A stretch of 64,000 nucleotides of DNA from Dehalococcoidia bacterium (GTDB lineage: Bacteria; Chloroflexota; Dehalococcoidia; UBA2979): positions 2,461,372-2,525,371 of the forward strand of contig OZ252250.1 of the NCBI GenBank assembly GCA_965249675.1. The letters run 5' to 3'. Under the pieces are notes generated by a model. The model had not been told where the DNA came from. It saw nothing but the letters and a program-made list of their open reading frames with translations, and ran no database searches. Positions 6,285 through 63,980 of this stretch are shown here, piece by piece; position 1 is the stretch's first letter; each line of letters opens with the position of its first letter. Both the position numbers and the translations under genes were made by a program.

Positions 6285-6354
6285 TCCGCCGAGTGTACGG
6301 GCACGGCCTGCTGGACTCGAACGGGGCGGCCACGGACACCGCTATACTGGCCGC

Positions 6355-19627: not shown

Positions 19628-20785
19628 AGCTCTGAACTGGGAGCAGAATACGGCCGATCAGGCGGTTTCGGGACGTTCAGTCGCTTGATGGTCGGGGATG
19701 CGGCCTGATCGAGGCTCGCGAGAGGCTCTGCGAGTGCCGTTTGGCGCTCGATGCGGGATTCTGGGCGCACTGGGCCCTGGTTACGTAGCAAGTTGGCGCT
19801 CCGCTCGAACCACGTTGGCCAGTCCCAACAGCAACGCCAACCGCTGCGTGTTCTTGAACAGTCCGCGGTAGCGGACCTTGGCGTAGCCGAACCGCACCTT
19901 CACGATCTGGAACGGATGCTCGACCTTCGCGCGCAGCGAGGTCTTGCCCCGCTCCTCGAGCCACTCCTCACCCTCGGCGTCGAGCAATCGTCGCATCCCC
20001 GGTCGCATGGCAACCTGCCACTGCACCGCACGCTGGCGGTGCTCCAGACGTTTGCCGATGCCCTGGTACCCCGCATCGCCACAGACCAGCGTCTCGTCGC
20101 CGTGCAGCAGGTACGACACCTCGCTGATGTCGCTGACGTTCGCCGCCGTCGTGTGCAGGCTGTGCACGATGCCGCTCTCCGAGTCCACCCCGATGTGCAA
20201 CTTCATCCCGAAGTACCACTGGTTTTGGCGCGATTCCTCGTCGACGCCGGGGCGCTGATGATACTGGCATCGACGATCGTCCCGGACTGCGCTCGGAGCC
20301 GCAGCCCCTGTGCCTGCAGATGGCGGTTGATCTCTCCGAGCAAGCCCGTCCCCAGCGCGGACGCCTCCAGCCGATGGCGGAAGTTGAGAATCGTCGTCTC
20401 ATCGGGGATCGCGTCCGATAGCCTGAGCCCCACGAAGCGCTGCACGGTGAGATTCTCGTACAGCGCGTCCTCCATCGCCGGGTCGCTGAGGTTGTCGACC
20501 AGTTGCACGATGTGCACCCGCAGCATCAGTGAGAGCGGGTAGGGCTGGCGCCCCCGTCCCGGCATCGGGTAGTGGGGCGCAATGCGCTGCTCGAGTTGCC
20601 GCCACGGAACCAGCCGATCGAGTCGTTCCAGAAACCGCTCCCGGCGCGTCGTTCGCTTCTTCGCGTCGTAGTACAGCTCCGCGAACGTTGCCTCGCCCAT
20701 CGCGCTCACCTCGTCATCTGGTCGAATGCCATACCATCCCGTGTAGGCATCTTAACAGATCATGCGGGTCTGTTCAGAGCGTCCT
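19628..20785 (-). mobile_element. IS5-family insertion sequence, copy 2: diverged (~90% nt identity) with a 38-bp internal deletion
   Basis: Same terminal repeats (GGAAGCTCTGAAC / GGACGCTCTGAAC). Lies 4 bp (CTAA) from copy 1 in the same orientation; the other flank is the GUGCG 5' end of the group II intron. Confidence 0.85.
19781..20709 (-). pseudogene. IS5-family transposase, disrupted by internal deletion and frameshift
   Basis: N-terminal part (20203-20709) and C-terminal part (19781-20206) fall in different frames; compared with copy 1, 38 bp are deleted around STRNRA.../NQWYFGMK. Confidence 0.85.
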
Positions 20786-22547: not shown

Positions 22548-23340
22548 GGGATGTGGTCAGCTGGTCGGAGCACCTCCCTTCGAGGCGGTGGTGACCCGCA
22601 GGCGATAGGACTCGCTGCCGGTCTCGATGATGTGGGCGCGGAACGTGAGCCGGTCGACGACCGCGGCGGCGAGGCGGGGGGTCGGCGAAGGTGCGGCCCC
22701 ACTCCGAGAACGGCGCGTTGGAGGCGACTGCCACCGAGGCCCGCTCCTCGCGCTCGGTGAGGACCTGGAAGAGCAGTTCGGCTCCGCGCGGGTCGAGGTG
22801 GACGTAGCCGAACTCGTCGAGGCAGAGCAGGTCGAGCCGGCCGTAGCGGGCGACCAGGCGTGAGAGCGTGCGCTCGTCGGCGGCTTCGGCCAGTTCGTTC
22901 ACGAGCTGTGCCGCCGTCGTGTAGCGCACCCGCAGCCCGCGCTGGCAGGCGGCCATGCCGAGCCCGATCAGCAGGTGCGACTTGCCGGTGCCGCTGTCTC
23001 CGAGCAGCACGACGGGCTGGCCCGAGGCGATCCACTCGCCGCGCTCGAGCGTGGCGAGCATGGTCGGGTCGACCGTGGGGGCCGCCGCCAGGTCGAAGTC
23101 GGCGAGGTGCTTGAGCCGGGGGAAACGGGCCTCGTGGATGCGGCGCTCACGGCGGCGCGCATCGCGGTCGTCGAGCTCGGATTGGAGCACCTCGGCGAGG
23201 TAGGCGAGATGGGTGAGCCGGTCGCGCAGCGCGGCCTCGGCGAGCGCGCCGGCCTGCTGACGGACCGTGGGGAGGTGCAGCGCACGGCTGGTCGCCTCGA
23301 CCTGAAGCGCCGCCGCCTGCTCGGTCACAGGTGTGCTCAT
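22548..23340 (-). pseudogene. IS21 IstB ATP-binding helper, frameshifted near C-terminus
   Basis: Walker A GDSGTGKSHLL and DEFGYV. After ...FSEWGRTFADP the frame is lost at a 6-G homopolymer (22676-22681); removing one base restores ...RLAAAVVDRLTFRAHIIETG... Confidence 0.8.
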
Positions 23341-24866
23341 CGCGTGCTCGCGGCGAGCAGCGCGTCGTAGCCGGCCAGGCTCGGCGCCGGGCGTTCGAAG
23401 CGCCTGAGCGCCGGCCGCTCCACAACGGCGGTCTCGCGGCGGCCGTCGGCGACGCGGCGCGCCTCGATGGCGATCAGCGCCGGGTCCACCGCGCCCAGCT
23501 GCTCCACCGCATCGAGTGCTGCGTGCACCGAGGCGGCGGGGAGGTGGCGGTGCAATAGCAGCACCTCGATGAGCGCCCGCGTCCCGGCGCCGTCACCGAG
23601 CTTGCGGCGGGCACGCTGCCAGAAGCGTTCGTGCGCGGCGGTGAAGCCAGCGCCTGAGCGCGCCTGCGCGAGCGCGATCGAGCCGGGCAGCGCCCCGGGC
23701 TTGCGGGACAGCACCTCGAGGAAGTGGTCCAGCACGAGGACCTCGGATCCCTTGTGCGCGCTGCGCTCGTGGCGGGCAACCACCCGGCCCGCGACGAGGG
23801 CGGTCACGGTCCCGCCGCCCAGGCGGACGTCCACCGTGCGGCCCGCGAACGCCGCGGGGACCGAGTAGCGCGAGCCACGCACGGAGATGCGCGCCTTGCG
23901 GTCGGCCTTCGCTTGCAGTGCGACCGTGGGGTCGAAGGGTTCGGCGGGGAGGGGCCGCAGCGCGGGCCGCTCTGCCTCCGCCGTCTGGCCGACGGTGGCG
24001 AGCCGGCCGGCGATGTGGCGGGCTCCGTCTGCGCGGTCGGCCGCCTCGAGCAGCGCGTTCAGCTCGGCCAGGCTCTCGCCGCGCGGGACCGGCACGAGGT
24101 GGCGCCGGCGGAAGCGCCCGACCTCACCCTCCACGCCCCCCTTCTCGTGCGCGCCCGCGATGCCGGGCTCGCAGAAGAAGCTGTCGAAGCCGTAGTGCGA
24201 GCGCAACGCGACGAAACGGTCGCTCTCGACGCGGTCGCGGCCGCGCAGCACGCGCGTGACGGCCGAGCTCAGATTGTCGTAGCGGATCCGCCGCGGCACC
24301 CCGCCGAGGCGCTCGAGGGCGAGCGTGTGGCCCTCGAGGAACGCCTCCTGGCCCTCGCCCGGGAAGCACACGTGGACCGCCCGCCCCGAGTGCGAGAGCC
24401 GCAGCACGAACATCGACAGCTCGGTCAGCACGCCGTCCAGCCAGACGCTGACCCCGCCGAAGTCGACCTCCGCCTCCTCGCCCGGCGGATGCAACTGGGG
24501 GATCGTCACGACTGAGCGACCGGACTCCAGCTCGCGGCGCACGCGGCCGACGTAGGCGCGCACCGTCGCCTCGGCGACCGTCGCGCCGTACTCATCGACG
24601 AGGCGCTCCCAGACCCGCCGCGCCGTGTGCCGCTGCTTGCGCGGCGCGCTCAGGTCGGCGACGAGCCACTCCCGGATGATCTCTACGTACGGACCGAGCT
24701 TCGGCGCCGCTCGAGACGCCTGCTTGCGTTGTGGCGGCAGCGCCGACTGCAGCGCCTGCCGTACCGTGCGCCGGTGCACGTGGTGGCGGCGCGCCAGCTC
24801 GCGTATGGGCAGCCCCTCCTCTCGCCATGCCCGTCGGATATCCTCGAACAACTCCACCCTCGACAC
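23337..24866 (-). CDS. IS21 IstA transposase
   Basis: N-terminal HTH (IRELARRHHVHRRTVRQAL), DDE core; 4-nt overlap with istB as is typical. Confidence 0.9.
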   Translation of the reverse strand: MSRVELFEDIRRAWREEGLPIRELARRHHVHRRTVRQALQSALPPQRKQASRAAPKLGPYVEIIREWLVADLSAPRKQRHTARRVWERLVDEYGATVAEATVRAYVGRVRRELESGRSVVTIPQLHPPGEEAEVDFGGVSVWLDGVLTELSMFVLRLSHSGRAVHVCFPGEGQEAFLEGHTLALERLGGVPRRIRYDNLSSAVTRVLRGRDRVESDRFVALRSHYGFDSFFCEPGIAGAHEKGGVEGEVGRFRRRHLVPVPRGESLAELNALLEAADRADGARHIAGRLATVGQTAEAERPALRPLPAEPFDPTVALQAKADRKARISVRGSRYSVPAAFAGRTVDVRLGGGTVTALVAGRVVARHERSAHKGSEVLVLDHFLEVLSRKPGALPGSIALAQARSGAGFTAAHERFWQRARRKLGDGAGTRALIEVLLLHRHLPAASVHAALDAVEQLGAVDPALIAIEARRVADGRRETAVVERPALRRFERPAPSLAGYDALLAASTR

Positions 24867-27160: not shown

Positions 27161-28658
27161 ATGATGAACGACGCGCAGCAGTCTGATGGGGCCGTAGGAG
27201 CTATGAAGGTGACGAACAAAGGGGCGCGAGTCCCGGCGGAGTCGCTGGAGCAAAGGGCCCCAGCCGAGAGGAATCGGCGACGCTCCGGCACAGTCCGGTC
27301 TCAGAATCGGGGAGCTGTGTCACCCGGAGCGGAGCGGATACGGCAGTTCGCAGAGAAGAAGCCGGGAGAGAAACTCATCGCGCTCCTGCACCACATCACG
27401 TCGGAAACACTCAAGGAGGCGTACCACGCTTTGAAGCGTGACGCGGCTCCGGGCGTGGACGGGGTGACGTGGCGGGAATACGGGGACGGACTGGACGAGC
27501 GTTTGCTCGACCTGCACGGCCGCGTGCACCGGGGAGCGTATCGGGCGAAGCCTGTGCGGCGGGTAGAGATACCAAAGCCGGACGGGGGCGTACGACCGCT
27601 CGGTATCGTCTCGCTGGAGGACGAGATCGTTCAGCGGGCAGTGGTGGACAATCTTCTGAACCCGATTTACGAATCGGAGTTCTACGGCTTCTCGTACGGC
27701 TTCAGGCCGGGGCGCTCGGCGCATGACGCGCTGGACGCACTGGCCTACGCGGTCGAACGGCGCAAGGTCAGCTGGATTGTCGAGGTGGACATCCGGGGGT
27801 TCTTCGACAGCATCGACCGGGAACGGCTGATGTCGTTTCTGGAGATGCGCATCGGGGACCAGCGGGTGTTGCGCCTGATACGAAAGTGGCTGAACGCCGG
27901 AGTCATGGACGGGGGACTGGAAGTCGATTTCGTGCGGGGGACGCCGCAGGGAGCGCCGATATCGCCGCTGCTTGCGAACGTGTACCTGCACAACGTGCTC
28001 GATGACTGGTTCGCGCGCGAGTGGCGACCGCGGGAGGCCCGGGGCGAGGCGTACATCGTGCGGTATGCCGATGACTTTGTCCTGGGGTTTCAGCACCGCA
28101 GCGATGCGGTGCGTTTCATGGAGGCGCTTCGGGAGCGATTTGCGGCCTTCGGACTGGAGCTGCACCCGGAGAAGACGCGTCTTGTGGAGTTCGGCCGGTT
28201 CGCGATGGCGAACCGGCGTAAGCGCGGGGAGAGTCGGCCGGAGACGTTCGATTTTCTCGGGCTGACGCACTACTGCCGGACGACGAGCAAGGGGCGTTTC
28301 GGGCTGGGACGTAAGCCCTCAGCGAAGCGTATGCATCGCACGCTCAAGGCCATACGGGCCGAGACGCGGCGGCGCATGCACGACAACCCAGTGAGTGGCG
28401 CAGTGGCTTGGGCGTGTGCTGCGTGGGTGGCTTGGCTACTACGCGGTGCCGACGAGTTATCGGTTCCTCCACCGCTTTGTGCAGACCTTGCTCCGCATGT
28501 GGTGGCAGGTCTTGCGGCGGCGGTCGCAACGGGATCGTTTCTCGTGGGAGCGCCTCGACGCCCTGTGCCGGGACTACTGGCCTCGAATCTCCATCCTCCA
28601 CCCGTGGCCGACGACGCGGTTCGCCGTCAGGACTCAAGGCAGGAGCCGGATGCATTAA
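27161..28658 (+). pseudogene. second group II intron-type reverse transcriptase/maturase (RT2), frameshifted
   Basis: GVDGVTWREY, VRRVEIPKPDGGVRPLGI, YGFRPGRSAHDAL, IVRYADDFVLGF, then X domain LRGWLGYYAVP in a different frame (ORF 28395-28658) because of a 4-bp tandem duplication AGTGAGTG at 28390-28397. Confidence 0.8.
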
Positions 28659-28854
28659 CGTGCACGTCCGGATCCGTGCGGGGGGCGGCCAGCAATGGCC
28701 GTCCCTACCGCGAAAGAACCGCACGTCTGGTTCGAGGTGGCAGGGGCTGAAGACCGACGTTGCTACGGACGGGGAGTTGTGCACCACCGGGAAACCGGCT
28801 TGGAATCGACGCGCCCCGGCCCTACGGCACGCACCGCGCCAGCCCCTGACCCTA

Positions 28855-45440: not shown

Positions 45441-46631
45441 GGACGCTCTGAACAGACCCGCATGATCTGTTAAGATGCCTACACGGGATGGTATGGCATT
45501 CGACCAGATGACGAGGTGAGCGCGATGGGCGAGGCAACGTTCGCGGAGCTGTACTACGACGCGAAGAAGCGAACGACTCGCCGGGAGCGGTTTCTGGAAC
45601 GACTCGATCGGCTGGTTCCGTGGCGGCAACTCGAGCAGCGCATTGCGCCCCACTACCCGATGCCGGGACGGGGGCGCCAGCCCTACCCACTGTCACTGAT
45701 GCTGCGGGTGCACATCGTGCAACTGGTCGACAACCTCAGCGACCCGGCGATGGAGGACGCGCTGTACGAGAATCTCACCGTGCAGCGCTTCGTGGGGCTC
45801 AGGCTATCGGACGCGATCCCCGATGAGACGACGATTCTCAACTTCCGCCACCGGCTGGAGGCGGCCGCGCTGGGGAGGGGGTTGCTCGAGGAGATCAACC
45901 GCCATCTGGAGGCGGAAGGACTGCAGTTGAGACAGGGGACTGTGGTTGATGCCAGTATCATCAGCGCCCCCTCGTCGACCAGGAATCGGGCCAGAGCACG
46001 GGATCCCGAGATGCACCAGACGCGCAAGGGAAACCAGTGGTACTTCGGGATGAAGTTGCACATCGGGGTGGACTCTGAGAGCGGCATCGTGCACAGCCTC
46101 CACACGACGGCGGCGAACGTGAGCGACATCACCGCGGCGCCCGACCTGCTGCACGGCAACGAAAGGCTGGTCTGTGGCGATGCGGGCTACCAGGGCATCG
46201 GAAAACGTCTGGAGCAGCGCGAGCGTGCGGTGCAGTGGCAGGTTGCCATGCGACCGGGCAAGCGGCGACTGCTCGACCGGGAGGGTGAGGAGTGGCTCGA
46301 AGAGAAGCGCAAGGCCTCCGTGCGTGCGAAGGTCGAGCATCCGTTCCAGATCGTGAAGGTGCGCTTCGGCTACGCCAAGGTCCGCTACCGCGGATTGTTC
46401 AAGAACACGCAGCGGCTCGCGTTGCTGTTGGGGCTGGCCAACATGGTTCGAGCGGAGCGCCAACTTGCTGCGTAACAACGGCGCAGTGCGCCCAGAATCC
46501 CGCAGCGAGCGCCAAACGGCACTCGCAGAGCCGCTCGCGAGCCCCGATCAGGCCGCATTCCTGACCATCAAGCGATTGAACGCCCCAGAAGAGCCTGATC
46601 GGCCGCATTTCGCGGCCAGTTCAGAGCGTCC
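45441..46631 (+). mobile_element. IS5-family insertion sequence, copy 3 (1191 bp)
   Basis: IRs GGACGCTCTGAAC; flanks CTAG / TTAG; splits the solute-binding protein gene. Confidence 0.9.
45516..46475 (+). CDS. IS5-family DDE transposase (319 aa, intact)
   Basis: Identical to the 18586-19545 product except two substitutions. Confidence 0.95.
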   Translation: MSAMGEATFAELYYDAKKRTTRRERFLERLDRLVPWRQLEQRIAPHYPMPGRGRQPYPLSLMLRVHIVQLVDNLSDPAMEDALYENLTVQRFVGLRLSDAIPDETTILNFRHRLEAAALGRGLLEEINRHLEAEGLQLRQGTVVDASIISAPSSTRNRARARDPEMHQTRKGNQWYFGMKLHIGVDSESGIVHSLHTTAANVSDITAAPDLLHGNERLVCGDAGYQGIGKRLEQRERAVQWQVAMRPGKRRLLDREGEEWLEEKRKASVRAKVEHPFQIVKVRFGYAKVRYRGLFKNTQRLALLLGLANMVRAERQLAA

Positions 46632-55029: not shown

Positions 55030-56229
55030 TCAGTAGGCTCCGCGATCGCGGAGCCTACTGATCTCATCCCAGCTGTATCCCGCTTCGCCGAGCACGGCTT
55101 CGGTGTCGTGACCGGCCTCCGGTGCCGGTCCGAAACGGAGCGGTAGGCCGCGCAGGTGGAAGGGGGGCGAGACGGTCTCGATGTGCCTCCCTGATCGATG
55201 CCGCTTGGCGACGATGTATCCGTTGGCTCGCGCCTGCTCGTCGCCGGCGATCTCGGTCGCGTTGAAGATCGGGGACCAGGGGAGGTCCTGGTCGTCGAGA
55301 CGCCGCGCGAGTTCATCAGCTCCCAGGGCACCGACCAGTTCATCGAGCAGAGCGATTGCCTCCGTGGCGTGCTCACCCAGTGCCGCGGCGTTGTGGAAGC
55401 GCTCGTCCTCCACCAGGTCCGACCTGTCGAGGGCGATGCAGAGGGGCCGCCAGTATCGATCGGGCTGCAACATCGCGAACTGCACCCACTTGCCGTCACG
55501 GGAGCGATAGGAGTGATAGAGCGGATTCGAGCCCGCAGCCCGCTCGCGCCGGGGGCCCTGCCCGCCAAGCAAGGCCTGCTGGAGCAGCCATCCGTTGGTC
55601 CACATCCCGCACTGATAGAGCGAGACGTCGACGATCGATCCCGTCCCGTCGCGCTCACGTCGGAGCAGCGCCATGGTCACGCCTGCGACGAGAGCGATCG
55701 CCGAAGGCAAGTCGCCCATCGCACCTGCCAGACCCACCGGCGGAACTGCCGGCGGTGTGATCGCATCAGCGATCCCGCCGCGGGACCAGTAGGCGAGTTC
55801 ATCGAACGCCGGCCGCCCCGAGTGAGGTCCCTCGGTGCCGTAGCCGGTCGCGTGGGCGATCACCAGCTGCGGGTAGAGCCGGCCAAGTTGGTCGGGGAGC
55901 AGCCCGGCGCGTTTGAGAGCTTCCTGCCGGACATTAGTGACGAACACATCGGCATCGGTGAGCAGGCGGCGAACCACCTCCCGTCCCGCATCGGTGCCGA
56001 GGTCGAGGTGGATACTCCGCTTGCGGTTGTTCGCCAATTCGAAGCCGGCTTCGATCGCCTCATCGCCGACTTCGAGGGTTGCTGCTCGGCTCGGGTCGCC
56101 GCTGCCGGCCGGTTCGATCTTGACGACGTCAGCGCCGTACGCGGAGAGGATTCCGGCGGCCGCGGGGGCCATCACCCACGAGGCCAGTTCAATGACGCGG
56201 AGACCGTCAAGCGGCAGTTGAGTTGTCAC
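55030..56229 (-). CDS. CoA-transferase family III (CaiB/BaiF-like)
   Basis: LDGLRVIELASWVMAPAAAGILSAYGADVVKIEP N-terminal fold; GTG 56229 chosen (track ORF extends 53 codons upstream). Confidence 0.8.
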   Translation of the reverse strand: MTTQLPLDGLRVIELASWVMAPAAAGILSAYGADVVKIEPAGSGDPSRAATLEVGDEAIEAGFELANNRKRSIHLDLGTDAGREVVRRLLTDADVFVTNVRQEALKRAGLLPDQLGRLYPQLVIAHATGYGTEGPHSGRPAFDELAYWSRGGIADAITPPAVPPVGLAGAMGDLPSAIALVAGVTMALLRRERDGTGSIVDVSLYQCGMWTNGWLLQQALLGGQGPRRERAAGSNPLYHSYRSRDGKWVQFAMLQPDRYWRPLCIALDRSDLVEDERFHNAAALGEHATEAIALLDELVGALGADELARRLDDQDLPWSPIFNATEIAGDEQARANGYIVAKRHRSGRHIETVSPPFHLRGLPLRFGPAPEAGHDTEAVLGEAGYSWDEISRLRDRGAY

Positions 56230-56251
56230 GCGAGCGCTCCCTGCTGACCGC

Positions 56252-57025
56252 TCAGGCGTCGTTGAACTGCGGGGTTCGCCGCTCGGCGAACGCACGTGTG
56301 CCTTCCCGGTTGTCCGCCATCGAAGAGGCGATGCGCCCGTATTCGTGGTAGAGCCTGAGCCCCTCGCTGAGAGGCAGGTCGCGACCACGGTAGGCGAGTT
56401 CCTTGATCAACCTCGCGGCGCCGGGACCGTTCCCGGCCACACGCCGCGCCAATTCCAAAGACTCGGCCTCAAGCCGTTCGGGTGGGAAGAGGTGGCTGAC
56501 CAGCCCCACGCGGAGTGCCGTCGCGGCGTCGATGAAGTCCCCGGTCAGGAGGAGGTACATCGTCTGGCTCATGCCGATCATATCGGGCAGTCTGAGGGCG
56601 CCATAGCCGTGGAGGATGTTCCACTTCACCTCTGGCGAACCGAACTGGGAGCGCGTCGAGGCGACACGAATATCGCAGAAGAGCGCGAGCTCCAGGCCGC
56701 CGGCCAGGCAGTATCCGTCGATCACCGCAACTGTCGGAGTTGCGCATTGAAGGCCACTGTCCCAGCGGCGGGCGCGGTACGGCTGCCAGGTTCGAGCCTC
56801 GCGGTCGCTCCCCAGTTCGTAGAGGTCGTGTCCCGCCGAAAAGGCACGCTCGCCGTTTCCGGTAACAAGAATGCAACGGACCACCGGGTCTGCGTCGGCC
56901 AGCTGTAGCAGGCGGCCGACCTCGTCGTACATCGCATCGGTCATCGCGTTCATGCGTTCTGGTCGATCGAGCGTGATCCTCGCGACTCGACCTTCTGTGC
57001 TGTACGTTACCTCGTCCACGGACAC
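56252..57025 (-). CDS. enoyl-CoA hydratase/isomerase (crotonase) family protein
   Basis: ITLDRPERMNAM, ILVTGNGERAFSAGHDL oxyanion-hole region. Confidence 0.85.
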   Translation of the reverse strand: MSVDEVTYSTEGRVARITLDRPERMNAMTDAMYDEVGRLLQLADADPVVRCILVTGNGERAFSAGHDLYELGSDREARTWQPYRARRWDSGLQCATPTVAVIDGYCLAGGLELALFCDIRVASTRSQFGSPEVKWNILHGYGALRLPDMIGMSQTMYLLLTGDFIDAATALRVGLVSHLFPPERLEAESLELARRVAGNGPGAARLIKELAYRGRDLPLSEGLRLYHEYGRIASSMADNREGTRAFAERRTPQFNDA

Positions 57026-57400
57026 TCCTCGCTCATGACGCCAGCGGGTCGCCAGGCGCCGACCAGCGCCCCGGGGTGGTGAGACCGAGCGGCAGACTCA
57101 GCGATCGCGCAACGCTCTGATCGATCCACACGGCGATGAGACCGGGCGCCAGCGCCCTTTGGTCGGCGGCAAATCGCGAAGTGACTCGACCGATCGCTTG
57201 CCGCCTCCCGTTGGCCCGTTCGGGGTGGCCTGAGGATATCCCCTGTGCGCAAGGACCGCCGGGAGCTGGCCTCGCTGAGAAGCTCACGTCCTGGCTGGCC
57301 CCCGGGCCCTCCGCGTGTGCTAGCTTCACTCTCTCGCCCGTAGTCTCCGGCGCGGCGGGGGGCGACCCGGGCTCGGCGCCGCTGGGGAGGGAGGAGTGAG

Positions 57401-58531
57401 ATGAGCGTCAGCGTCCAGGAGCGCCTCGATGCCCTCTTGCGGGACTTCGAGGCCGCCGGGCAGCAGCAGGTCGGCTACCCCTGCAACCAGAACTACGACT
57501 ACTCAGCCCTGTGGCCGTTTCTTCAGTACAGCGTGAACAACATCGGTGATCCGTTCCACGCCAGTAACTTTCGGAGTAACACACACGAGATTGAACGAGA
57601 AGTCGTCAACTTATTCTCCGACATGATGCGTCTCGATCGAGACCAGGCGTGGGGCTATGTCAGCTCGGGCGGTACCGAGGGGAACATGTACGGTCTGTAC
57701 ATGGGGCGCGAGCGTTTCCCCGACGGGATGGTCTACTTCTCCCAGGACACCCACTACAGCGTGGTCAAGATCCTGAGCGTCCTGAAGCTGCGTAACATCA
57801 TGATCAAGAGCCAGGACAATGGTGAGATCGACTACGCAGACCTCCACGAGACAATCCGGGTGAATCGCGACGTCCCGGTGATATTCATCGCGAACCTCGG
57901 CACGACGATGAAGGGTGCCGTTGATGACATCTCAAAGGTCACAGACATCTTCGCCGACCTGGCGATCACCAATCGCCATATCCATGCAGACGCCGCGCTG
58001 AGCGGCATGATCCTCCCCTTCGTGGACGATCCTCAGCCTTACGGCTTCGATGCGGGGGTCGACAGCATGGCGATCAGTGGGCACAAGATGGTCGGGTCGC
58101 CACTGCCTTGCAGGGTCGCTCTCACGAGGAGCGAATACGTCACCCGCATCTCTCGCTCGATCGAGCTGGTCGGCGTTCTCGATACCACGCTGACCGGATC
58201 GCGCAACGCCATCACGCCGCTGATCCTCTGGTACGCATTCGAGCAACACGGGCTGGACGGGTTTGGGCAGATCGTGCGTCAGTGCCTTGAGACCGCCGAG
58301 TACGCAGTCTCCCGCTTCAACGAGGCGGGGATCCCGGCGTGGCGAAGCAAGAACTCAGTGACAGTCGTCTTCCCGCGCCCGCCGGCGGCGGTCATTCGCC
58401 GATGGCAGCTCGCGCCCTCGGCCGAGATCGCCCATCTGATCACGATGCCGCAGGTCACGCCCGCTGTCGTCGACCAGGTGGTGGATGACTGTCTGCGTGA
58501 GTCAGGACAGGGGCAGGATCGAGCGGGATGA
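57401..58531 (+). CDS. hdc: pyridoxal-phosphate-dependent histidine decarboxylase
   Basis: Collinear similarity to Gram-negative HdcA: YVSSGGTEGNMYGLYMGRERFPDG, YFSQDTHYSV, HADAALSGMILPFVDD, PLP-lysine motif SGHKMVGSPLPC, TGSRNAITPL. Confidence 0.85.
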   Translation: MSVSVQERLDALLRDFEAAGQQQVGYPCNQNYDYSALWPFLQYSVNNIGDPFHASNFRSNTHEIEREVVNLFSDMMRLDRDQAWGYVSSGGTEGNMYGLYMGRERFPDGMVYFSQDTHYSVVKILSVLKLRNIMIKSQDNGEIDYADLHETIRVNRDVPVIFIANLGTTMKGAVDDISKVTDIFADLAITNRHIHADAALSGMILPFVDDPQPYGFDAGVDSMAISGHKMVGSPLPCRVALTRSEYVTRISRSIELVGVLDTTLTGSRNAITPLILWYAFEQHGLDGFGQIVRQCLETAEYAVSRFNEAGIPAWRSKNSVTVVFPRPPAAVIRRWQLAPSAEIAHLITMPQVTPAVVDQVVDDCLRESGQGQDRAG

Positions 58532-58920
58532 ACAGAATCATCGTGATGGCGAGAGACGAGGTCGGCGTGATTGCCGACATCAGCGGAGTGCTTGCGGCGA
58601 ACGAGCTCAACATCGAGTCCATTGATACTGAGTCCCTCAGCGGCCATGGCGCGATCTCACTGACCACGAACGACGACGACCGTGCGCTGCAGGTTCTGAC
58701 ACATGCCGGCTTCAAGGCGGTCACCGACGACTCGTTGCTCGTCAGGCTCCGCGACGAACCGGGCGCGCTTGCCAAGATGGCCGAGAGGTTCAGGCAGAAC
58801 GGCGTCAACATTCAGAGCCTCCACATTCTCGATCGACGCGATGACCACTCGACCGTGGCCGTATCGACGAACGACCGTGCGAAGGCCGAGAGCCTCCTGG
58901 ACGGCGAGTCGATCGTCTAG
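58528..58920 (+). CDS. tandem ACT-domain regulatory protein
   Basis: Two ~60-aa ACT-like repeats (VMARDEVGVIADISGVLA / VRLRDEPGALAKMAERFR); 4-nt overlap with hdc; the stop codon TAG is the IS5 target CTAG. Confidence 0.6.
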   Translation: MNRIIVMARDEVGVIADISGVLAANELNIESIDTESLSGHGAISLTTNDDDRALQVLTHAGFKAVTDDSLLVRLRDEPGALAKMAERFRQNGVNIQSLHILDRRDDHSTVAVSTNDRAKAESLLDGESIV

Positions 58921-60110
58921 GGACGCTCTGAACAGACCCGCATGATCTGTTAAGATGCCTACACGGGATGGTATGGCATTCGACCAGATGACGAGGTGAG
59001 CGCGATGGGCGAGGCAACGTTCGCGGAGCTGTACTACGACGCGAAGAAGCGAACGACTCGCCGGGAGCGGTTTCTGGAACGACTCGATCGGCTGGTTCCG
59101 TGGCGGCAACTCGAGCAGCGCATTGCGCCCCACTACCCGATGCCGGGACGGGGGCGCCAGCCCTACCCACTGTCACTGATGCTGCGGGTGCACATCGTGC
59201 AACTGGTCGACAACCTCAGCGACCCGGCGATGGAGGACGCGCTGTACGAGAATCTCACCGTGCAGCGCTTCGTGGGGCTCAGGCTATCGGACGCGATCCC
59301 CGATGAGACGACGATTCTCAACTTCCGCCACCGGCTGGAGGCGGCCGCGCTGAGGAGGGGATTGCTCGAGGAGATCAACCGCCATCTGGAGGCGGAAGGA
59401 CTGCAGTTGAGACAGGGGACTGTGGTTGATGCCAGTATCATCAGCGCCCCCTCGTCGACCAGGAATCGGGCCAGAGCACGGGATCCCGAGATGCACCAGA
59501 CGCGCAAGGGAAACCAGTGGTACTTCGGGATGAAGTTGCACATCGGGGTGGACTCTGAGAGCGGCATCGTGCACAGCCTCCACACGACGGCGGCGAACGT
59601 GAGCGACATCACCGCGGCGCCCGACCTGCTGCACGGCAACGAAAGGCTGGTCTGTGGCGATGCGGGCTACCAGGGCATCGGAAAACGTCTGGAGCAGCGC
59701 GAGCGTGCGGTGCAGTGGCAGGTTGCCATGCGACCGGGCAAGCGGCGACTGCTCGACCGGGAGGGTGAGGAGTGGCTCGAAAGAAGCGCAAGGCCTCCGT
59801 GCGTGCGAAGGTCGAGCATCCGTTCCAGATCGTGAAGGTGCGCTTCGGCTACGCCAAGGTCCGCTACCGCGGATTGTTCAAGAACACGCAGCGGCTCGCG
59901 TTGCTGTTGGGGCTGGCCAACATGGTTCGAGCGGAGCGCCAACTTGCTGCGTAACAACGGCGCAGTGCGCCCAGAATCCCGCAGCGAGCGCCAAACGGCA
60001 CTCGCAGAGCCGCTCGCGAGCCCCGATCAGGCCGCATTCCTGACCATCAAGCGATTGAACGCCCCAGAAGAGCCTGATCGGCCGCATTTCGCGGCCAGTT
60101 CAGAGCGTCC
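58921..60110 (+). mobile_element. IS5-family insertion sequence, copy 4 (1190 bp) with perfect CTAG target duplication
   Basis: IRs GGACGCTCTGAAC; CTAG at 58917-58920 and 60111-60114. Confidence 0.9.
58996..59954 (+). pseudogene. IS5-family transposase with 1-nt deletion near the 3' end
   Basis: Identical to copy 3 up to ...EGEEWLE; one G missing at ~59781 shifts the frame; the C-terminal 60 aa reappear in ORF 59772-59954. Confidence 0.8.
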
Positions 60111-60137
60111 CTAGCGGTGCGAGAGACCCCTCCGCCG

Positions 60138-61382
60138 CTACCAGGCTGCCTCCAGCAGCGAGATGGCCCGCGGAATGTGTCGCTCCGCGTCGCGAAGCCC
60201 GGCGTTTGAGTTGAACACCTTGAGACTGTCCCCGGCGATCGCCGGGAGGTCCTCCTTGGGGATCTTCAACTCCCGCAGGGTGGTCGGCATCCCCTCCGCT
60301 CGATAGATCCGCTCCACTTCGTCGGCGATCGCCATGTGAGTCTCCTCAAGACTCCGGTCGCCTCTCCAGATGCTGAGCTGCCGCGCGATCGCCTCCACCG
60401 CCTCGGGAGCAGGGGTCTTCGACTGCCGGATCACCGTGGCGCGCAGAGCTGACCCGGAGTCCTGTTGCCACACATGCGCGTACTTGATGTGCAGTGCGGT
60501 GTTGAGGCCGTAGTCGCTTTCGAACGCCTCGCCACCACCCATGTGGGCACCGCGCTGCGAATCGTCGGCGGCACGATTGGCGAGGAGCGCCCCGACGAAG
60601 AGGTCCAGGCGCCAGTCGATCGCATCCGGATCTTCGCGCATCCGGTGGTAGGCACGGTTCGCGAGTTTCCGGATGTGGTCGCGGTCGCCCTCGGCCAGCG
60701 AGTTCTCACTCCGGCGGCCAGCAGTGAGCGCTGCGCCGACAAACGAGTTGACGGCGAATCCGTGCATCATGCTGAACGGCGTCGCCATGATCGCTTCATG
60801 GTCCCAGATCAGCGCCCGCGGACGAGTCTTCGGGTCGAAGTACTCAAGCCGATTCTGGTCGAGGTGCGGGCTCGCAACGCCCTGACCGGCACGATTCATC
60901 GCTCCCGTCGGGGTCGTTGTGATGTTGATGGTCGGCAGCTTTGGCGCACTGAGCCGGGGGCTCACGGCCGGCTTCCCCTCCGGGTACTGGGTGGCCATCT
61001 CCTCATGATCGCCCGCCTCGCAGAGGTAGATGTTGATCACGCGCGTCGCCACGACCACTGTGCCCGCGCCCAGCGAGATCAAGAGGTCCGCTCCGGCCTC
61101 GCGCGCAGCGTTCGTGGCGGCCACGACATCGGGGTAGGGTGCTTCAATGCGGATGCCGTCAAAGTAGCCGGCAAACAGCGAGCCGAGCGCCGCCTGCACG
61201 CGTTCGACGCTGTTCGTCTTGCTCTTGATGGAGGGTGAGCAGATCACGAACGCGCGCTTAGCGCCGGCGCGGATCACTTCCTCACGCAGCCGGTCCTCGA
61301 TCGCTTCCGGTCCGACGTGCAAGCGCCAGTCGTAGCTGCGAGCCGTGAATGCGTACGGGTCCGAGAAGTCAGGGTGTCGCAC
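60138..61382 (-). CDS. iron-containing alcohol dehydrogenase-family protein (maleylacetate-reductase-like)
   Basis: Fe-ADH fold segments (ADLLISLGAGTVVVATRVI, conserved His-rich metal-site region HMGGGEA...H); family assignment from overall pattern only. Confidence 0.5.
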   Translation of the reverse strand: MRHPDFSDPYAFTARSYDWRLHVGPEAIEDRLREEVIRAGAKRAFVICSPSIKSKTNSVERVQAALGSLFAGYFDGIRIEAPYPDVVAATNAAREAGADLLISLGAGTVVVATRVINIYLCEAGDHEEMATQYPEGKPAVSPRLSAPKLPTINITTTPTGAMNRAGQGVASPHLDQNRLEYFDPKTRPRALIWDHEAIMATPFSMMHGFAVNSFVGAALTAGRRSENSLAEGDRDHIRKLANRAYHRMREDPDAIDWRLDLFVGALLANRAADDSQRGAHMGGGEAFESDYGLNTALHIKYAHVWQQDSGSALRATVIRQSKTPAPEAVEAIARQLSIWRGDRSLEETHMAIADEVERIYRAEGMPTTLRELKIPKEDLPAIAGDSLKVFNSNAGLRDAERHIPRAISLLEAAW

Positions 61383-61768
61383 ATCGCACCTCCTTGAGGT
61401 CGACCGGTCTGACGCGGCGATGTCAGTCGGTGGACCACACGTCCCGGCGCGGCGACCAGTGAGCCGGCTCGCGCTCGATGATATGCCATGGGAGCCGGCT
61501 GGGTAGCGGTCAGGCTTCAGGCGCGGGCAACCGGCGCACGCCGCTGACCGTCCGACGTTCAGGTCACTCCGGGGCGGCTCTCACCTCGTCGTCTGCGGGA
61601 TCTGGCCGCGGTGCGAAGCTCCTCCTCCGCGGCCCCGGGGGAGTCTCTCAGAGGCCGCCCACCGGCTACCCTGTCGTCGACGGGCCGGGTGCGCCACGCG
61701 TTCGATCCGTTTCCGGCAGCTGCTCATGTTCGTGCGAGGAGGGGGCCGTGCCGCAGTCCGTGTTGGTC

Positions 61769-63200
61769 ATGGGAGCGAGCGGGTATGTAGGTTCCATCTG
61801 GTCCCGTTCCTGATCGCTCGCGGCTACCACGTCCGCGCGGCGTCCCGACGGAGTGACACGCTCGAGGCTCGTGGGTGGCACGGCGTCGAGCTCGTCGAGA
61901 CAGATGCGCTCGACCCGGTGTCCCTGGAGCCCGCGCTCAGGGGCATCGAGACCGCCTACTACCTACCTGGTTCACTCCATGGCGGCTGTGCGCGACTTCG
62001 CCGCGCTCGATCGAGAGGCGGCGGATCACTTCCGGCTCGCAGCACAACGGGCGGGAGTGCGCCGCATCATCTACCTCGGTGGTCTACAGCCGAGCGAGGC
62101 CTCCTCAGCCCACCTGCGCTCGCGGCGTGAAACCGGGGATCGCCTGCGAGCGGGCCCGGTGCCCGTGACCAAGCTGCGGGTGGGCATCATCGTCGGGGCG
62201 GGCTCGGCCGCGTTCGAGGTGATCCGAGACCTCGTCTATCACCTGCCCGTGATGGTGACCCCTCGCTGGGTCCGGTCGCGAAGCCAGCCGATCGCCCTGG
62301 ACGACCTGCTCGAGATCCTCGTGCGCCTGCCCAACCACGAGGAGAAGACCGATCGAATCTACGATGTCGTTGGTCCTGAGACGCTGACGTACGAGGAGCT
62401 GCTCCGTCAGTTCGCCGAGGTGGTCGGGCGGCGGCTCTGGAAAAAGCCGGTGCGGGTGCTCAGCCCCCGGCTGTCGTCGTGGTGGCTGGACCTCGTCACA
62501 TCGGTGCCGGCGAGCGTGGCGAGGCCCCTGATCGACGGGTTGAAACACGACCTCGTCTCCACGCATCCGACCGAGCTGTGCGAACTGCTCCCCCGACGGC
62601 TCAGGACCTATGCGCAGGCCGCTCGTACGGCCGTCGAAGCTGAGACGACCGCAGCGATTCCCGCCCGCTGGACAGAGGGGGCGTTCCGTTTCCGACAGGA
62701 GCGACATGACATCTCGTATTACAGCAAGTCGGTCGGCTACCGGGCCGACAGCACGGCGCCGCCAGAGACGGCATGGGCCCAGGTCATCGCGATCGGCGGG
62801 GACCGCGGGTGGGTATTACGCGAACCCACTGTGGCGGCTACGCGGCCTGCTCGACCGTCTGGTGGGCGGCGTCGGGATGCGCCGCGGGCGACGTCATCCG
62901 AGTGAGTTACGCCCGATGGACCCGCTCGACTTCTGGCGGGTCGCCAGCATCGATGGAGGTGAGCGGCTGACCCTGATCGCCGAGATGAAGTTGCCCGGAT
63001 CGGCCGTCCTGGAGATCTCGATTGCGCCTCGGGAGGGCGGTTCAGCGGTCACTCTCCAGGCGCACTTCCACCCCGCGGGTGTGCTCGGACTGCTCTACTG
63101 GTATGCCCTCTGGCCGATCCATCGTCGCATCTTCGAACACCTCCCGCGCGCTATTGCCCGTCGTGCAGAGGAGTCTGTCGCCAACGCTCCGACCGGATGA
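61769..63200 (+). pseudogene. NAD(P)H-binding SDR-like protein with C-terminal DUF2867, three frameshifts
   Basis: MGASGYVGS | HLVPFLIARGYHVRAASRR...AYYL | VHSMAAVRDF... | GWYYANPLWRLRGLLDRLVGG...DFWRV reads across four frames. Breaks: 1-nt deletion ~61795, 4-bp tandem duplication ACCTACCT 61961-61968, 1-nt insertion ~62810. Confidence 0.75.
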
Positions 63201-63491: not shown

Positions 63492-63980
63492 ATGCTGACG
63501 GACAAAACGGACCAACTCGGAGCCCTGGTGGGCGGCGTCGCCGTCATTGCGTTCGTGGCCGTCCTCTCGCTTGCTGCCGCTTGCGGTTCGGACGAGAGCA
63601 CGGAGCCGGCGGCAACTGCTGCATCGACGCCGGCACCGACCGCCACGCCGGCACCGACCGCCACGCCGACACCGACCGCCACGCCGACACCGACCGCCAC
63701 GCCGACACCGACCGCCACGCCGACACCGACCTCAACACCGACACCGACCTCAACACCGACACCGACCTCCACGCCGACACTGACCTCCACACCCGTGGGC
63801 TCGGTCAGCGACCTCGTCGTAAGCGAGAGCACCACGGTCCGGAACCTCACGTCCTACTTCTCCGACCCCGAGGTTGCCTGCATACGCGACGCGATCGGCG
63901 CGGCCATCTTCGACGTGATCCTCGACGCTCCTCTCCTGACGCTCCCGGGGGCCGTCGGCGACTTCCCCTTCCAGTGCCTC
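63492..63980 (+). CDS. secreted lipoprotein with (TPTPTA)n linker, 3' end beyond window
   Basis: ATG 63492; signal peptide + lipobox LSLAAAC. The ORF is open to the window end, and is absent from the ORF track because it has no stop. Confidence 0.65.
63627..63790 (+). repeat. 18-bp tandem repeat (ACGCCGACACCGACCGCC-like, ~9 units) encoding the Thr-Pro linker
   Basis: Direct tandem units visible in the sequence; no spacers, so not a CRISPR array. Confidence 0.85.

Follow-up and report, generated by a model that had tools for sequence, protein, structure and literature searches.

A decarboxylase gene translationally coupled to a tandem-ACT gene in a Dehalococcoidia genome: a histidine decarboxylase-like family with probably another substrate

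The window analysed here, a stretch of 64,000 nucleotides from a Dehalococcoidia bacterium (contig OZ252250.1), contains a decarboxylase gene followed directly by a gene for a small stand-alone tandem-ACT protein (Table 1). The two genes form an operon with translational coupling, the stop codon of the one and the start codon of the other sharing the tetranucleotide ATGA; the same overlap is present at 16 of 86 loci of this kind, with a spacer of at most 44 nt at all the remaining loci but one. Both open reading frames in the window are full length, with no frameshift or stop codon. Rfam gave zero matches at E <=1 around the operon, and neither a consensus promoter nor a consensus terminator was seen in its surroundings. 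The gene structure is as described in the initial annotation, a 376-aa decarboxylase collinear with HdcA and bearing the PLP-lysine motif SGHKM, overlapping by 4 nt a 130-aa double-ACT protein: reading frame, motif, alignment to the structure 7ERV and domain matches all agree.

Table 1. Features of the decarboxylase-ACT locus and its neighbours (positions in the window)
Feature	Position	Strand	Remarks
Family III CoA-transferase gene	55030..56388		Neighbour of the pair
Enoyl-CoA hydratase gene	56252..57025		Neighbour of the pair
Shine-Dalgarno GGAGGAG	57390..57396	+	4 nt 5' of the decarboxylase ATG; read from sequence
Decarboxylase gene	57401..58531	+	376 aa, ATG start
YPX motif Y26-P27-C28	57476..57484	+	X = substrate-specificity position
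S226-G-H228-K229-M230	58076..58090	+	K229 = PLP Schiff-base lysine; aligned to AtSerDC His313-Lys314
Arg238 codon AGG	58112..58114	+	Otherwise invariant Gly position
Leu256 codon CTG	58166..58168	+	Catalytic-loop Tyr position (C-alpha protonation)
ATGA stop/start overlap, decarboxylase/ACT	58528..58531	+	Translational coupling
Stand-alone tandem-ACT gene	58528..58920	+	130 aa, ATG start
IS5 target duplication CTAG	58917..58920 and 60111..60114		Left copy holds the ACT stop codon
IS5-family insertion sequence	58921..60110	+	1190 bp, 15-bp terminal inverted repeats
IS5 transposase ORF	58996..59835		Cut short
Fe-ADH-family gene	60138..61382		Neighbour, beyond the IS5 element

The CoA-transferase/crotonase and Fe-ADH neighbours named in the initial annotation are all present, and genes of the antiporter, NRPS and siderophore kinds are absent within ∼10 kb on either side, as had been said of the immediate neighbours. 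What had gone unnoticed is the IS5 element, which abuts the ACT stop codon and separates the ACT gene from the Fe-ADH gene. The element is missing from a 99%-identical contig; it is a recent insertion at the 3' end of the pair and no part of the system. Three further IS5 copies lie within the 64-kb window, and in comparison with locus L001 a neighbouring NmrA/DUF2867 gene has a frameshift. IS copies are numerous in the source genome, in which one or more genes are frameshifted.

The 376-aa protein matches PF00282 of Pfam with 78.9 bits (cutoff 27). Its closest PDB sequence is the histidine decarboxylase (HDC) of Photobacterium phosphoreum (7ERV, E 1.5e-105), with which it is collinear over residues 21-368; serine decarboxylase (SerDC, E 1e-88) and MetDC (E 9e-34) are also matched. 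The PLP site was defined by a Schiff-base lysine in S-x-H-K, an aspartate to the pyridine N1, a stacking histidine, an alanine, a Gly-Thr phosphate loop and a serine from the other subunit. In the alignment K229, H228, D197, H118, A199, G91-T92 and S267 take the places of K314, H313, D282, H201, A284, G174-T175 and S352 in AtSerDC, and these residues are invariant across the 81 loci of the clade to which the window protein belongs. These matches place the enzyme among the group II PLP decarboxylases, in the HDC/SerDC/MetDC-like family and with an intact PLP site; its YPX motif and partner place it in a 'YPC' clade that is always ACT-partnered. Roughly 480 representatives lie at E <=1e-30, and homologues are publicly annotated as 'histidine decarboxylase'.

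PF01842 (ACT) matches the 130-aa protein in two stretches with 58.9 bits. In an AF2 model (pLDDT 86) it has two beta-alpha-beta-beta-alpha-beta units in the expected order, and Gly13 and Gly79, in the beta1-alpha1 ligand loops, are invariant in 49 ACT sequences. The best Foldseek matches, with probability 1.0, are the tandem-ACT protein 2F06, aspartate kinase beta-subunits and AHAS small subunits. Crystals of 2F06 reportedly contain a bound amino acid, which is given no weight here.

The pairing is strict. The ACT gene lies directly 3' of the decarboxylase gene in 80/80 GTDB species-representative genomes, in 5/5 metagenome contigs retrieved through the ACT alignment (ACT identity >=48%) and in the four distant family members looked up (Acidobacteriota, Planctomycetota and others), while ACT relatives with <=38% identity are located in other gene contexts. 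About 12 natural single-chain fusions (511-593 aa), P0252 and P0466 among them, have the decarboxylase first and a collinear tandem ACT after it. Split or fused, the pair is found in at least six phyla (Chloroflexota, Alphaproteobacteria, Nitrospinota, Acidobacteriota, Planctomycetota and Verrucomicrobiota), and pairwise identities between decarboxylases are correlated with those between their ACT proteins (r = 0.81). Clustering of flanking ORFs at 83 loci found nothing conserved beyond the pair itself: the most widely shared neighbours are an SDR (14 of 83, the maximum) and an ABC ATPase (12), and immediate neighbours such as a methyltransferase, a DMT-type transporter, a permease or an amidase occur at six loci or fewer each. 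The adjacency is far beyond chance, which answers the question of co-occurrence in other genomes that the initial annotation had raised, and from this distribution the pair reads as an old, self-contained unit in otherwise unrelated neighbourhoods. Some long database proteins had looked like further fusions and were rejected. P0095, P0090 and P0081 are merely N-terminal over-extensions; P0437, with the appearance of a branched-chain aminotransferase-decarboxylase fusion, has a low-complexity junction at which the aminotransferase sequence breaks off, probably reflects a frameshift or read-through in a metagenome assembly, and was set aside as substrate evidence. An uncalled ACT ORF is still present 3' of its decarboxylase part.

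Strict co-occurrence, translational coupling and natural fusions mark the ACT protein as a genuine, dedicated partner of the enzyme and make an amino-acid-sensing, regulatory role the most reasonable one for it; by analogy it would be an amino-acid-binding regulatory subunit of the decarboxylase, interacting with it physically and controlling it allosterically. The regulatory half of the earlier suggestion, that the ACT protein is a histidine-sensing regulator, is thereby kept; histidine as the sensed ligand is unproven and, on the residue evidence given below, unlikely. We know of no ACT regulatory subunit described for any group II PLP decarboxylase, and the literature searched gave no report of an HDC with an ACT domain.

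The initial annotation had called the enzyme an HDC, a call to be dropped if other decarboxylases proved the best matches. The best PDB match is in fact an HDC, and the NCBIfam 'HDC equivalog' model NF002748 is passed with 466 bits against a cutoff of 305, but this test does not discriminate: AtSerDC, which has zero activity on histidine (PMC4177580), scores level with the window protein at 458.7 bits, and validated HDCs reach 577-626 bits. With four validated HDCs (PpHDC, Klebsiella HDC, AngH and BasG), which share 65-75% identity among themselves, the window protein has 42-45% identity, and with AtSerDC 40%. In a neighbour-joining tree the four HDCs and the ACT-linked clade form two separate monophyletic groups.

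The two groups also differ at particular residues. The X of YPX is Glu in 4/4 validated HDCs, Cys, Thr, Val, Gly, Ser or Ala at 81/81 clade loci, and Cys, Val or Ser in 121/121 distant ACT-linked members. MetDC has Gln64 one residue ahead of this position, reported to be its specificity residue (Okawa et al. 2021); the support for that role here is the Q64A entry among the PDB sequences only. The YPX position is Tyr in SerDC and Phe in AlaDC, and its role in specificity has been defined experimentally (PMC11407765). Where the HDCs have YP-Glu28, Trp51, Glu/Asp53, His/Arg260 and Gly270-His271, the window protein has Cys28, Pro51, His53, Leu260 and Ala270-Ile271. All five HDC-distinguishing residues are replaced throughout the clade and in the 121 distant members, with the loss of both acidic residues. 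Positions 53 and 260 carry no charge in the clade, and position 271, His in HDC and SerDC, is Leu, Ile, Phe or Val there, as it is hydrophobic in MetDC (Phe436). We infer that the residues shared by HDCs contact histidine and that the YPE glutamate binds it, the latter by analogy with the homologous SerDC/AlaDC position and the adjacent MetDC position rather than from an HDC-ligand structure. Judged by these substitutions the clade is distinct from the validated HDC group, marked by YP-Cys with hydrophobic residues at 260 and 271, and its substrate is, most likely, not histidine but a neutral amino acid, probably one that is hydrophobic or aliphatic. The initial annotation thus is supported as far as an HdcA-like group II PLP decarboxylase is concerned, and unsupported as to histidine as the substrate.

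The window protein departs from its own clade as well. Leu256 is aligned to AtSerDC Tyr341 and to MetDC Tyr421, the latter reported to be a catalytic-loop tyrosine (Okawa et al. 2021). In plant SerDC/AlaDC the catalytic-loop tyrosine (AtSerDC Tyr341) has been defined experimentally (PMC11407765). Position 256 is Tyr at 79 of 81 clade loci and in 240 of 241 database homologues; one Tyr256 pair is locus L002, at 6459-7978 of VXRN01000027.1 (GCA_009838465.1). All six members of the window's 90% cluster, from six assemblies and otherwise near-identical, have Leu256, so it is no sequencing error. The change from Tyr has arisen three times independently, each time to Leu and each time two nucleotide steps from TAC, and in all three lineages the ORF and the ACT partner are intact. 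Position 238 is Gly in the 81 clade loci, 241 database homologues, HDCs, SerDC and MetDC (>320 family members); Arg238 occurs in the window strain alone, the five other members of its cluster having Gly. A third departure is His193 in place of a near-invariant Tyr. Because Leu256 replaces the protonating tyrosine, with Arg238 in addition, the window copy is probably unfit for the normal decarboxylase cycle.

Between the window and L001 the decarboxylase gene differs by 6 synonymous and 3 non-synonymous changes (dN/dS ∼0.15, binomial p ∼0.007 against neutrality), an estimate from nine substitutions only by which the gene appears still to be under purifying selection; the ACT gene has 2 synonymous and 4 non-synonymous changes. 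The window protein is changed at two clade-invariant positions, within the range of Tyr256 loci, and at sites that do not otherwise vary the three Leu256 lineages are changed slightly more often than the median locus.

Four other explanations of these observations were weighed. A true HDC would make histamine, which could serve in signalling, in pH homeostasis or as a precursor, and the ACT protein would sense histidine. The closest solved structure, the NF002748 score and the public annotation of homologues all speak for this, and histamine supply by sponge symbionts has been proposed, though through a different, AADC-type HDC (PMC10570526). With NF002748 scoring a histidine-inactive SerDC alike and identity to HDCs barely above that to SerDC, the likeness loses its force. 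Antiporter, hisS and siderophore genes do not recur among the 83 neighbourhoods and are absent on both sides of the window locus; an ACT gene is lacking at validated HDC loci, and the catalytic Tyr is missing from the window copy. Since the HDC-distinguishing residues are missing from the whole clade, histamine production and a histidine-sensing ACT are distinctly unlikely, and the histamine production supposed in the initial annotation is unproven. We consider it very unlikely that the ACT protein shares the operon without binding the decarboxylase, as a small regulator or sensor in its own right. A complex of the two is putative; in the AF2 model of the natural fusion P0252 (pLDDT 86, a moderate pTM of 0.77) the linker 383-400 is disordered and a fixed interface is neither shown nor excluded; and for some tandem-ACT proteins that stand alone, 2F06 for one, a partner is not known. 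Independence accords poorly, however, with repeated natural fusion into one polypeptide, with strict adjacency in six phyla amid otherwise unrelated neighbourhoods, with the co-variation of the two proteins, and with an ACT subfamily that occurs nowhere else, its next relatives being at most 38% identical and in other contexts.

The other two explanations concern the leucine. The Leu256 lineages could be aldehyde synthases, in which, by analogy with the plant enzymes, a quinonoid carbanion would react with O2 to give aldehyde, ammonia and H2O2 and no amine. This is possible, although it is not what we expect. In its favour, Leu occupies the position of AtSerDC Tyr341 and MetDC Tyr421, where the plant parallel carries a Tyr-to-Phe change; every PLP-site residue is kept, the small-loop histidine H118 included; the variant is fixed in its lineage; three independent events of two nucleotide changes each have left both genes intact; and the dN/dS of ∼0.15 was reached after the change. 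Moreover, serine-decarboxylase-like aldehyde synthases of the same family act on Phe, Met, Leu and Trp (PMC4177580). On the other side, AtSerDC Y341F and CsAlaDC Y336F are inactive for amine formation, an 'abortive decarboxylation' in the words of PMC11407765, so that loss of the Tyr need not create a useful activity. The slight excess of changes at invariant sites would fit relaxed constraint equally, and the three Leu256 loci have no recurrent neighbour of the aldehyde- or alcohol-dehydrogenase kind: the Fe-ADH-family neighbour is found only in the window's lineage, and none was found beside the others. To our knowledge a Leu at the Tyr position is uncharacterised, and aldehyde-synthase chemistry in this decarboxylase family is known to us from plants only. 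Alternatively, the window copy may be a decaying, dead gene in an IS-ridden symbiont genome, with Leu256 and Arg238 inactivating and the pair nearing loss. Decay is plausible in such a genome, rich in IS copies and with one or more genes frameshifted; the IS5 element directly after the ACT stop, the three other copies in the window, the frameshift in the adjacent NmrA/DUF2867 gene, the replaced catalytic residue, Arg238 in one strain only at an otherwise invariant Gly, His193 and the 4 non-synonymous against 2 synonymous changes in the ACT gene all point to it. It is nevertheless unlikely, given that both ORFs are intact at full length, that six assemblies of the lineage, with otherwise almost uniform proteins, all have Leu256, that the substitutions in the decarboxylase gene depart from neutrality, that just two clade-invariant positions have changed, within the range of Tyr256 loci, and that Tyr-to-Leu recurs in two unrelated lineages retaining both genes.

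The reading that we favour, as reasonably probable, is that of an ACT-regulated decarboxylase family other than HDC, probably with a substrate other than histidine, of which the window copy has altered or impaired chemistry; on our best reading the family has not been described before. The decarboxylase would act on an amino acid that is neutral and probably hydrophobic or aliphatic, and the tandem ACT would bind an amino acid and control the enzyme in the manner of an aspartate kinase beta-subunit or an AHAS small subunit. In the window's lineage Leu256 would replace the Tyr that protonates the carbanion after loss of CO2, with Arg238 as a strain-specific addition, and the window copy may be impaired or, like the plant aldehyde synthases, may divert the intermediate. 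A bolder form of this reading, which we think rather unlikely, is that ACT-linked decarboxylases are systematically misannotated, have a non-histidine (probably hydrophobic) substrate, and have repeatedly given rise, through Tyr-to-Leu changes, to ACT-controlled aldehyde synthases, that of the window among them.

The gene is annotated as 'histidine decarboxylase' in hundreds of genomes, among them those of Chloroflexota, Alphaproteobacteria, Planctomycetota and Acidobacteria, both sponge-associated and free-living. Should it act on another substrate, annotation-based inferences of histamine from microbes, for example in host-symbiont signalling, would be wrong. An ACT module, whether split off or fused, would be a novel control of amine formation and a clean system for studying ACT recruitment, and three independent Tyr-to-Leu changes with both genes kept may be regarded as a natural experiment on the switching of reaction specificity in PLP enzymes.

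Among known systems, Gram-negative HdcA (7ERU/7ERV, Vibrio anguillarum AngH and Acinetobacter baumannii BasG) has the same fold, is of similar length (∼375-385 aa), is collinear with the window protein throughout and has the same PLP site (H118, D197, A199, S226-x-H228-K229, S267). It differs in YPE for YPC, Trp51 for Pro51, Glu/Asp53 for His53, His/Arg260 for Leu260 and Gly-His for Ala270-Ile271, and validated HDCs lack the Leu found in the window copy at the catalytic Tyr position. HdcA loci are without ACT, whereas the window clade has an obligatory ACT partner. Genes of the antiporter and the anguibactin/ABC-transporter types are typical of HDC loci; angH of pJM1 is surrounded by anguibactin and ABC-transporter genes, and neither these nor a histidine/histamine antiporter gene are found beside the window locus.

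Plant AtSerDC (8JG7) and CsAlaDC belong to the same family (40-45% identity) and have in common with the window protein a GDP, not GDW, motif. Their YPX position is Tyr or Phe and not Cys, SerDC keeps His271 and Arg260 where the window residues are hydrophobic, and a C-terminal zinc finger is present, an ACT partner absent. MetDC of Streptomyces sp. 590 (7CIF; 7CIG is Q64A), again of the same family, is much further from the window protein (E 1e-33, compared with 1e-105 for the HDC structure), with 557 aa and large insertions. It resembles it in the Y-[IV]-G loop after the catalytic Tyr position, in GSRN-x-[Phe/Leu/Ile], with Phe436 for Ile271, and in a specificity residue in the N-terminal G-Y-x-x segment, GYQA as against GYPC; we know of no ACT partner for MetDC. 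The plant aldehyde synthases AtPAAS, Rr4HPAAS, MtAAS and CaAAS are like the Leu256 lineages in having a hydrophobic residue for the catalytic Tyr, a preserved PLP site and repeated origins; AtPAAS and Rr4HPAAS carry Phe and the window protein Leu, and the bacterial variants show no conserved downstream gene for handling an aldehyde.

For the ACT protein the nearest likenesses are the aspartate kinase beta-subunit, the AHAS small subunit (IlvH/IlvN) and BT0572 (2F06). At 17-24% identity and TM-scores of 0.4-0.5 its domain arrangement differs from theirs, and its partner is a PLP decarboxylase, a pairing absent from the literature searched. All are nevertheless small proteins of two ACT folds with glycine-containing ligand loops in common, and the genes of the aspartate kinase and AHAS subunits, like the ACT gene of the window, adjoin and often overlap the gene of the catalytic subunit.

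The window decarboxylase gene and the tandem-ACT gene that follows it share the tetranucleotide ATGA (stop/start overlap), and a ribosome-binding site, GGAGGAG, lies 4 nt 5′ of the decarboxylase ATG. Both ORFs, overlap included, are confirmed where the initial annotation had placed them, as are the neighbours that it named: genes for a family III CoA-transferase, a crotonase-type enoyl-CoA hydratase and an Fe-ADH-family protein. The decarboxylase matches Pfam PF00282 and contains the motif S226-G-H-K229-M; its top solved-structure match is the histidine decarboxylase (HDC) of Photobacterium phosphoreum (PpHDC; 7ERV, E 1.5e-105), bearing out the collinearity with Gram-negative HDCs claimed earlier, and the second is Arabidopsis serine decarboxylase (AtSerDC; 8JG7, E 1e-88), likewise collinear. 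The enzyme falls within the group II PLP decarboxylase family, save for the catalytic tyrosine, which this copy lacks. Family and partner had been read correctly, but the histidine substrate and histamine product are doubtful, and both the catalytic lesion (Leu256) and the IS element after the ACT gene had been overlooked.

Coordinates of features in the window and at related loci
Feature	Sequence	Position	Strand	Remark
Decarboxylase ORF	window	57401-58531	+	376 aa
ACT ORF	window	58528-58920	+	130 aa
IS5-family element adjoining ACT gene	window	58921-60110		1190 bp; 15-bp inverted repeats, CTAG target duplication
IS5 copy	window	about 18430-19620	-	
IS5 copy	window	45441-46631	+	
IS5 copy	window	19629-20784		
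ORF with Mu-transposase C-terminal domain	window	23337-24866		
Reverse-transcriptase ORF (RVT_1)	window	27161-28750		
NmrA/NAD-binding/DUF2867 gene	window	61726-63200		three overlapping ORFs
18-bp tandem repeat	window	63627-63790		9.1 copies, 95% matches
Decarboxylase, first copy	L029 (Alphaproteobacteria MAG CBDDDJ010000004.1)	4555-5646		
Decarboxylase, second copy	L029	9001-10520		
Aminotransferase-decarboxylase ORF	L153 (ENA ERZ25039549 contig_82909)	5001-7516		717 aa
AA_permease_2 gene	L147	6206-7687		
AA_permease_2 gene	L153	9500-10873		

The decarboxylase alignment was searched against one genome per species and the best 80 loci (69–77% identity) were taken, mostly from Dehalococcoidia/Chloroflexota MAGs, with the rest from Alphaproteobacteria, Paracoccaceae, Nitrospinota and unclassified bacteria. 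In all 80 of these best species-representative loci an ACT gene lies directly downstream of the decarboxylase; the 4-nt overlap occurs in 16 of 86 loci, and the spacer is ≤44 nt in all others but one. A reciprocal search of metagenome contigs with the ACT alignment gave five loci with 48–67% ACT identity, each with the decarboxylase upstream, so that the pairing, whose co-occurrence in other genomes the initial annotation had proposed to check, is kept in 80/80 and 5/5 loci. Tandem-ACT proteins ≤38% identical in the metagenome search adjoin unrelated genes (a thioesterase-like gene, an MFS transporter and others). Pairwise identities of the decarboxylase and ACT proteins co-vary (r = 0.81). 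Clustering of every flanking ORF over 83 loci, with shadow ORFs overlapping the pair set aside, gave no further conserved neighbour, the commonest occurring in only 14. The ACT gene is absent at the validated HDC loci, namely pJM1 angH, the A. baumannii basG region and the Klebsiella plasmid HDC. One Alphaproteobacteria locus (L029) has two decarboxylase copies in opposite orientation within 6 kb; the ACT query matches it twice, the best match directly adjoining the second copy.

Among 1.84 billion cluster representatives we found two fusions (557 and 532 aa) that join a decarboxylase, 55% and 49% identical to that of the window, to a C-terminal tandem ACT module. The natural fusion P0252 as query yielded twelve decarboxylase-ACT fusions of 511–593 aa, one annotated from Opitutales, together with many homologues that are not fused (Bryobacteraceae, Planctomycetes, Pirellulales). 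The C-terminal module of the fusions aligns collinearly and at full length with the window ACT protein (E 1e-13 to 5e-28), and one fusion was verified on a 134-kb contig. All four distant unfused members looked up have a downstream ACT gene of 131–133 aa; the 4-nt overlap recurs in three of these pairs, and the ACT ORF of the fourth member is present, uncalled in the annotation. Given these fusions and distant pairs, the association is found in at least six phyla and in both architectures, split and fused. On comparative grounds these findings speak strongly for an ACT module that would work with the decarboxylase.

At one distant locus (L153) the ORF of a class IV branched-chain aminotransferase continues into that of the decarboxylase, and the two are called as a single protein, probably a frameshift artefact, followed by an uncalled ACT ORF; the ilvE-like neighbour points weakly to branched-chain amino acids. 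Two of five distant loci have a gene for an APC-family amino-acid permease (AA_permease_2) no more than about 2.5 kb from the pair, and nothing alike recurs among the 83 close loci. The AA_permease_2 superfamily includes amino-acid/amine antiporters.

On NCBIfam model NF002748 the window protein scores 466 bits and so passes the cutoff of 305 in the profile check suggested for the HDC subfamily; however, among proteins of known function scored as a control, AtSerDC (residues 38-386 of chain 8JG7_A) reaches 458.7 bits and validated HDCs 577–626 bits. Histidine activity of AtSerDC was not measurable (PMC4177580). Since this histidine-inactive enzyme scores about as the window protein does, NF002748 does not separate substrates. 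Identity of the window protein to four validated HDCs (PpHDC, Klebsiella HDC, AngH and BasG) is 42–45%, to AtSerDC 40%, and among those HDCs 65–75%; in a neighbour-joining tree the four HDCs and the ACT-linked clade with a YP-Cys motif are separate monophyletic groups.

In a study of plant enzymes (PMC11407765), mutagenesis showed that the third residue of Y-P-X, Tyr111 in AtSerDC and Phe106 in the alanine decarboxylase CsAlaDC, sets serine versus alanine. Gln64 of Streptomyces methionine decarboxylase (MetDC), mutated to Ala in 7CIG, aligns one position before that residue. This glutamine is said, after Okawa et al. 2021, to have a role in specificity. When 4 validated HDCs, 81 clade loci and 121 distant ACT-linked members were compared, both acidic residues that would suit an imidazolium side chain were found lost, and the differing positions hydrophobic.

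Residues at positions differing from validated HDCs (window decarboxylase numbering)
Position	HDCs (n=4)	Clade (n=81)	Distant members (n=121)	AtSerDC	Other
28 (X of YPX)	Glu 4/4	Cys 65, Thr 6, Val 5, Gly 2, Ser 2, Ala 1	Cys 111, Val 9, Ser 1	Tyr	CsAlaDC Phe
51	Trp	Pro	Pro	Pro	
53	Glu/Asp	His 79, Tyr 2	mostly Ala, Val, Ser, Asn; Glu in 2	Ile	
260	His/Arg	Leu	Leu/Val/Met/Ile	Arg	
271	His	Leu/Ile/Phe	Ile/Val/Phe/Leu	His	MetDC Phe436

From model scores, identities, tree and loss of HDC residues, histidine appears an unlikely substrate; a neutral amino acid, probably hydrophobic, would be the likelier one. The enzyme is not filed here as a histidine decarboxylase, and the existing annotation of the ACT-linked clade is probably wrong.

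When relatives, PpHDC, AtSerDC and MetDC are aligned, Leu256 (CTG) of the window copy falls on Tyr341 of AtSerDC, 27 residues after the PLP lysine, and Tyr421 of MetDC. This catalytic-loop tyrosine gives a proton to C-alpha once CO2 is lost, and AtSerDC Y341F and CsAlaDC Y336F no longer form amine (PMC11407765). A Tyr-to-Phe change is both required and enough to turn plant aromatic amino-acid decarboxylases into aldehyde synthases. Leu256 is no sequencing error, since it is common to L001, a 99%-identical contig, and to each of the six members that make up the window's 90% cluster. Position 256 is Tyr in 240 of 241 database homologues and 79 of 81 other loci, the two exceptions being Leu (L042, TTG; L085, CTG). 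When column 256 is masked, the Leu256 lineages branch at three separate places in the tree, each beside Tyr-bearing relatives, and TAC is two nucleotide steps from a Leu codon. Leu256 arrived three times independently, the ORF intact and the ACT partner kept each time, and such repeated two-step arrivals look more like directed change than random decay. That the window copy has an altered activity, such as that of an aldehyde synthase, is entertained only tentatively.

That this copy has simply lost its function would fit the Arg, found in the window only, at Gly238, a glycine invariant in every family member examined (MetDC included), the His of the window lineage at near-invariant Tyr193, and the many IS copies of the genome and its frameshifted gene near the pair. 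Leu256 lineages nevertheless keep an intact ORF and ACT partner, and the decarboxylase gene differs from that of L001 by 6 synonymous and 3 non-synonymous changes (dN/dS about 0.15, p about 0.007); we consider such loss improbable. Neither altered activity nor loss of this copy affects the family-level conclusion.

The left CTAG target duplication of the ACT-adjoining IS5 element includes the ACT stop codon; L001 is without this element, its ACT and Fe-ADH genes being 23 nt apart. Since four IS5-family copies lie within the 64 kb, three of them 99.7–100% identical and one degenerate (90–94%), they point to IS elements having expanded recently in this genome. The aligned part of the ACT-adjoining copy is 1186 nt, versus 1187 nt in two near-identical copies, and this missing nucleotide probably explains its truncated transposase ORF. 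The RVT_1 ORF, possibly of group II intron or retron origin, and the Mu-transposase ORF lie amid housekeeping genes (polA, uvrB, ftsK and the RNase J gene) and are further evidence of a high mobile-element load. The NmrA/DUF2867 gene, a single 475-aa ORF in L001 (97–99% identical here), is split in the window by a 1-nt deletion at 61793 and insertions at 61959-61962 (4 nt) and 62811 (1 nt), and is either a pseudogene or the product of assembly indels. The tandem repeat, of unit ACGCCGACACCGACCGCC, lies within a minus-strand ORF coding (VGVE/VGVA)n.

The ACT ORF product matches Pfam PF01842 in two stretches and is modelled by AF2 as a tandem ACT protein (pLDDT 86); it falls below every NCBIfam cutoff, and those sources that name it all list it as 'hypothetical protein'. 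On adjacency, fusions and structural likeness we predict it to be a regulatory subunit of the decarboxylase. The literature searched yielded no dedicated ACT module, split or fused, for a group II decarboxylase, nor any paper with 'histidine decarboxylase' and 'ACT domain' together. The nearest solved structure to the model is the stand-alone tandem-ACT protein BT0572 (2F06), and ACT beta-subunits of aspartate kinase and small subunits of acetohydroxyacid synthase are also near. The window ACT protein matches known stand-alone ACT regulatory subunits in structure and genomic setting; an ACT subunit on a metabolic enzyme is a familiar scheme, and what is new here is the enzyme class that carries it.
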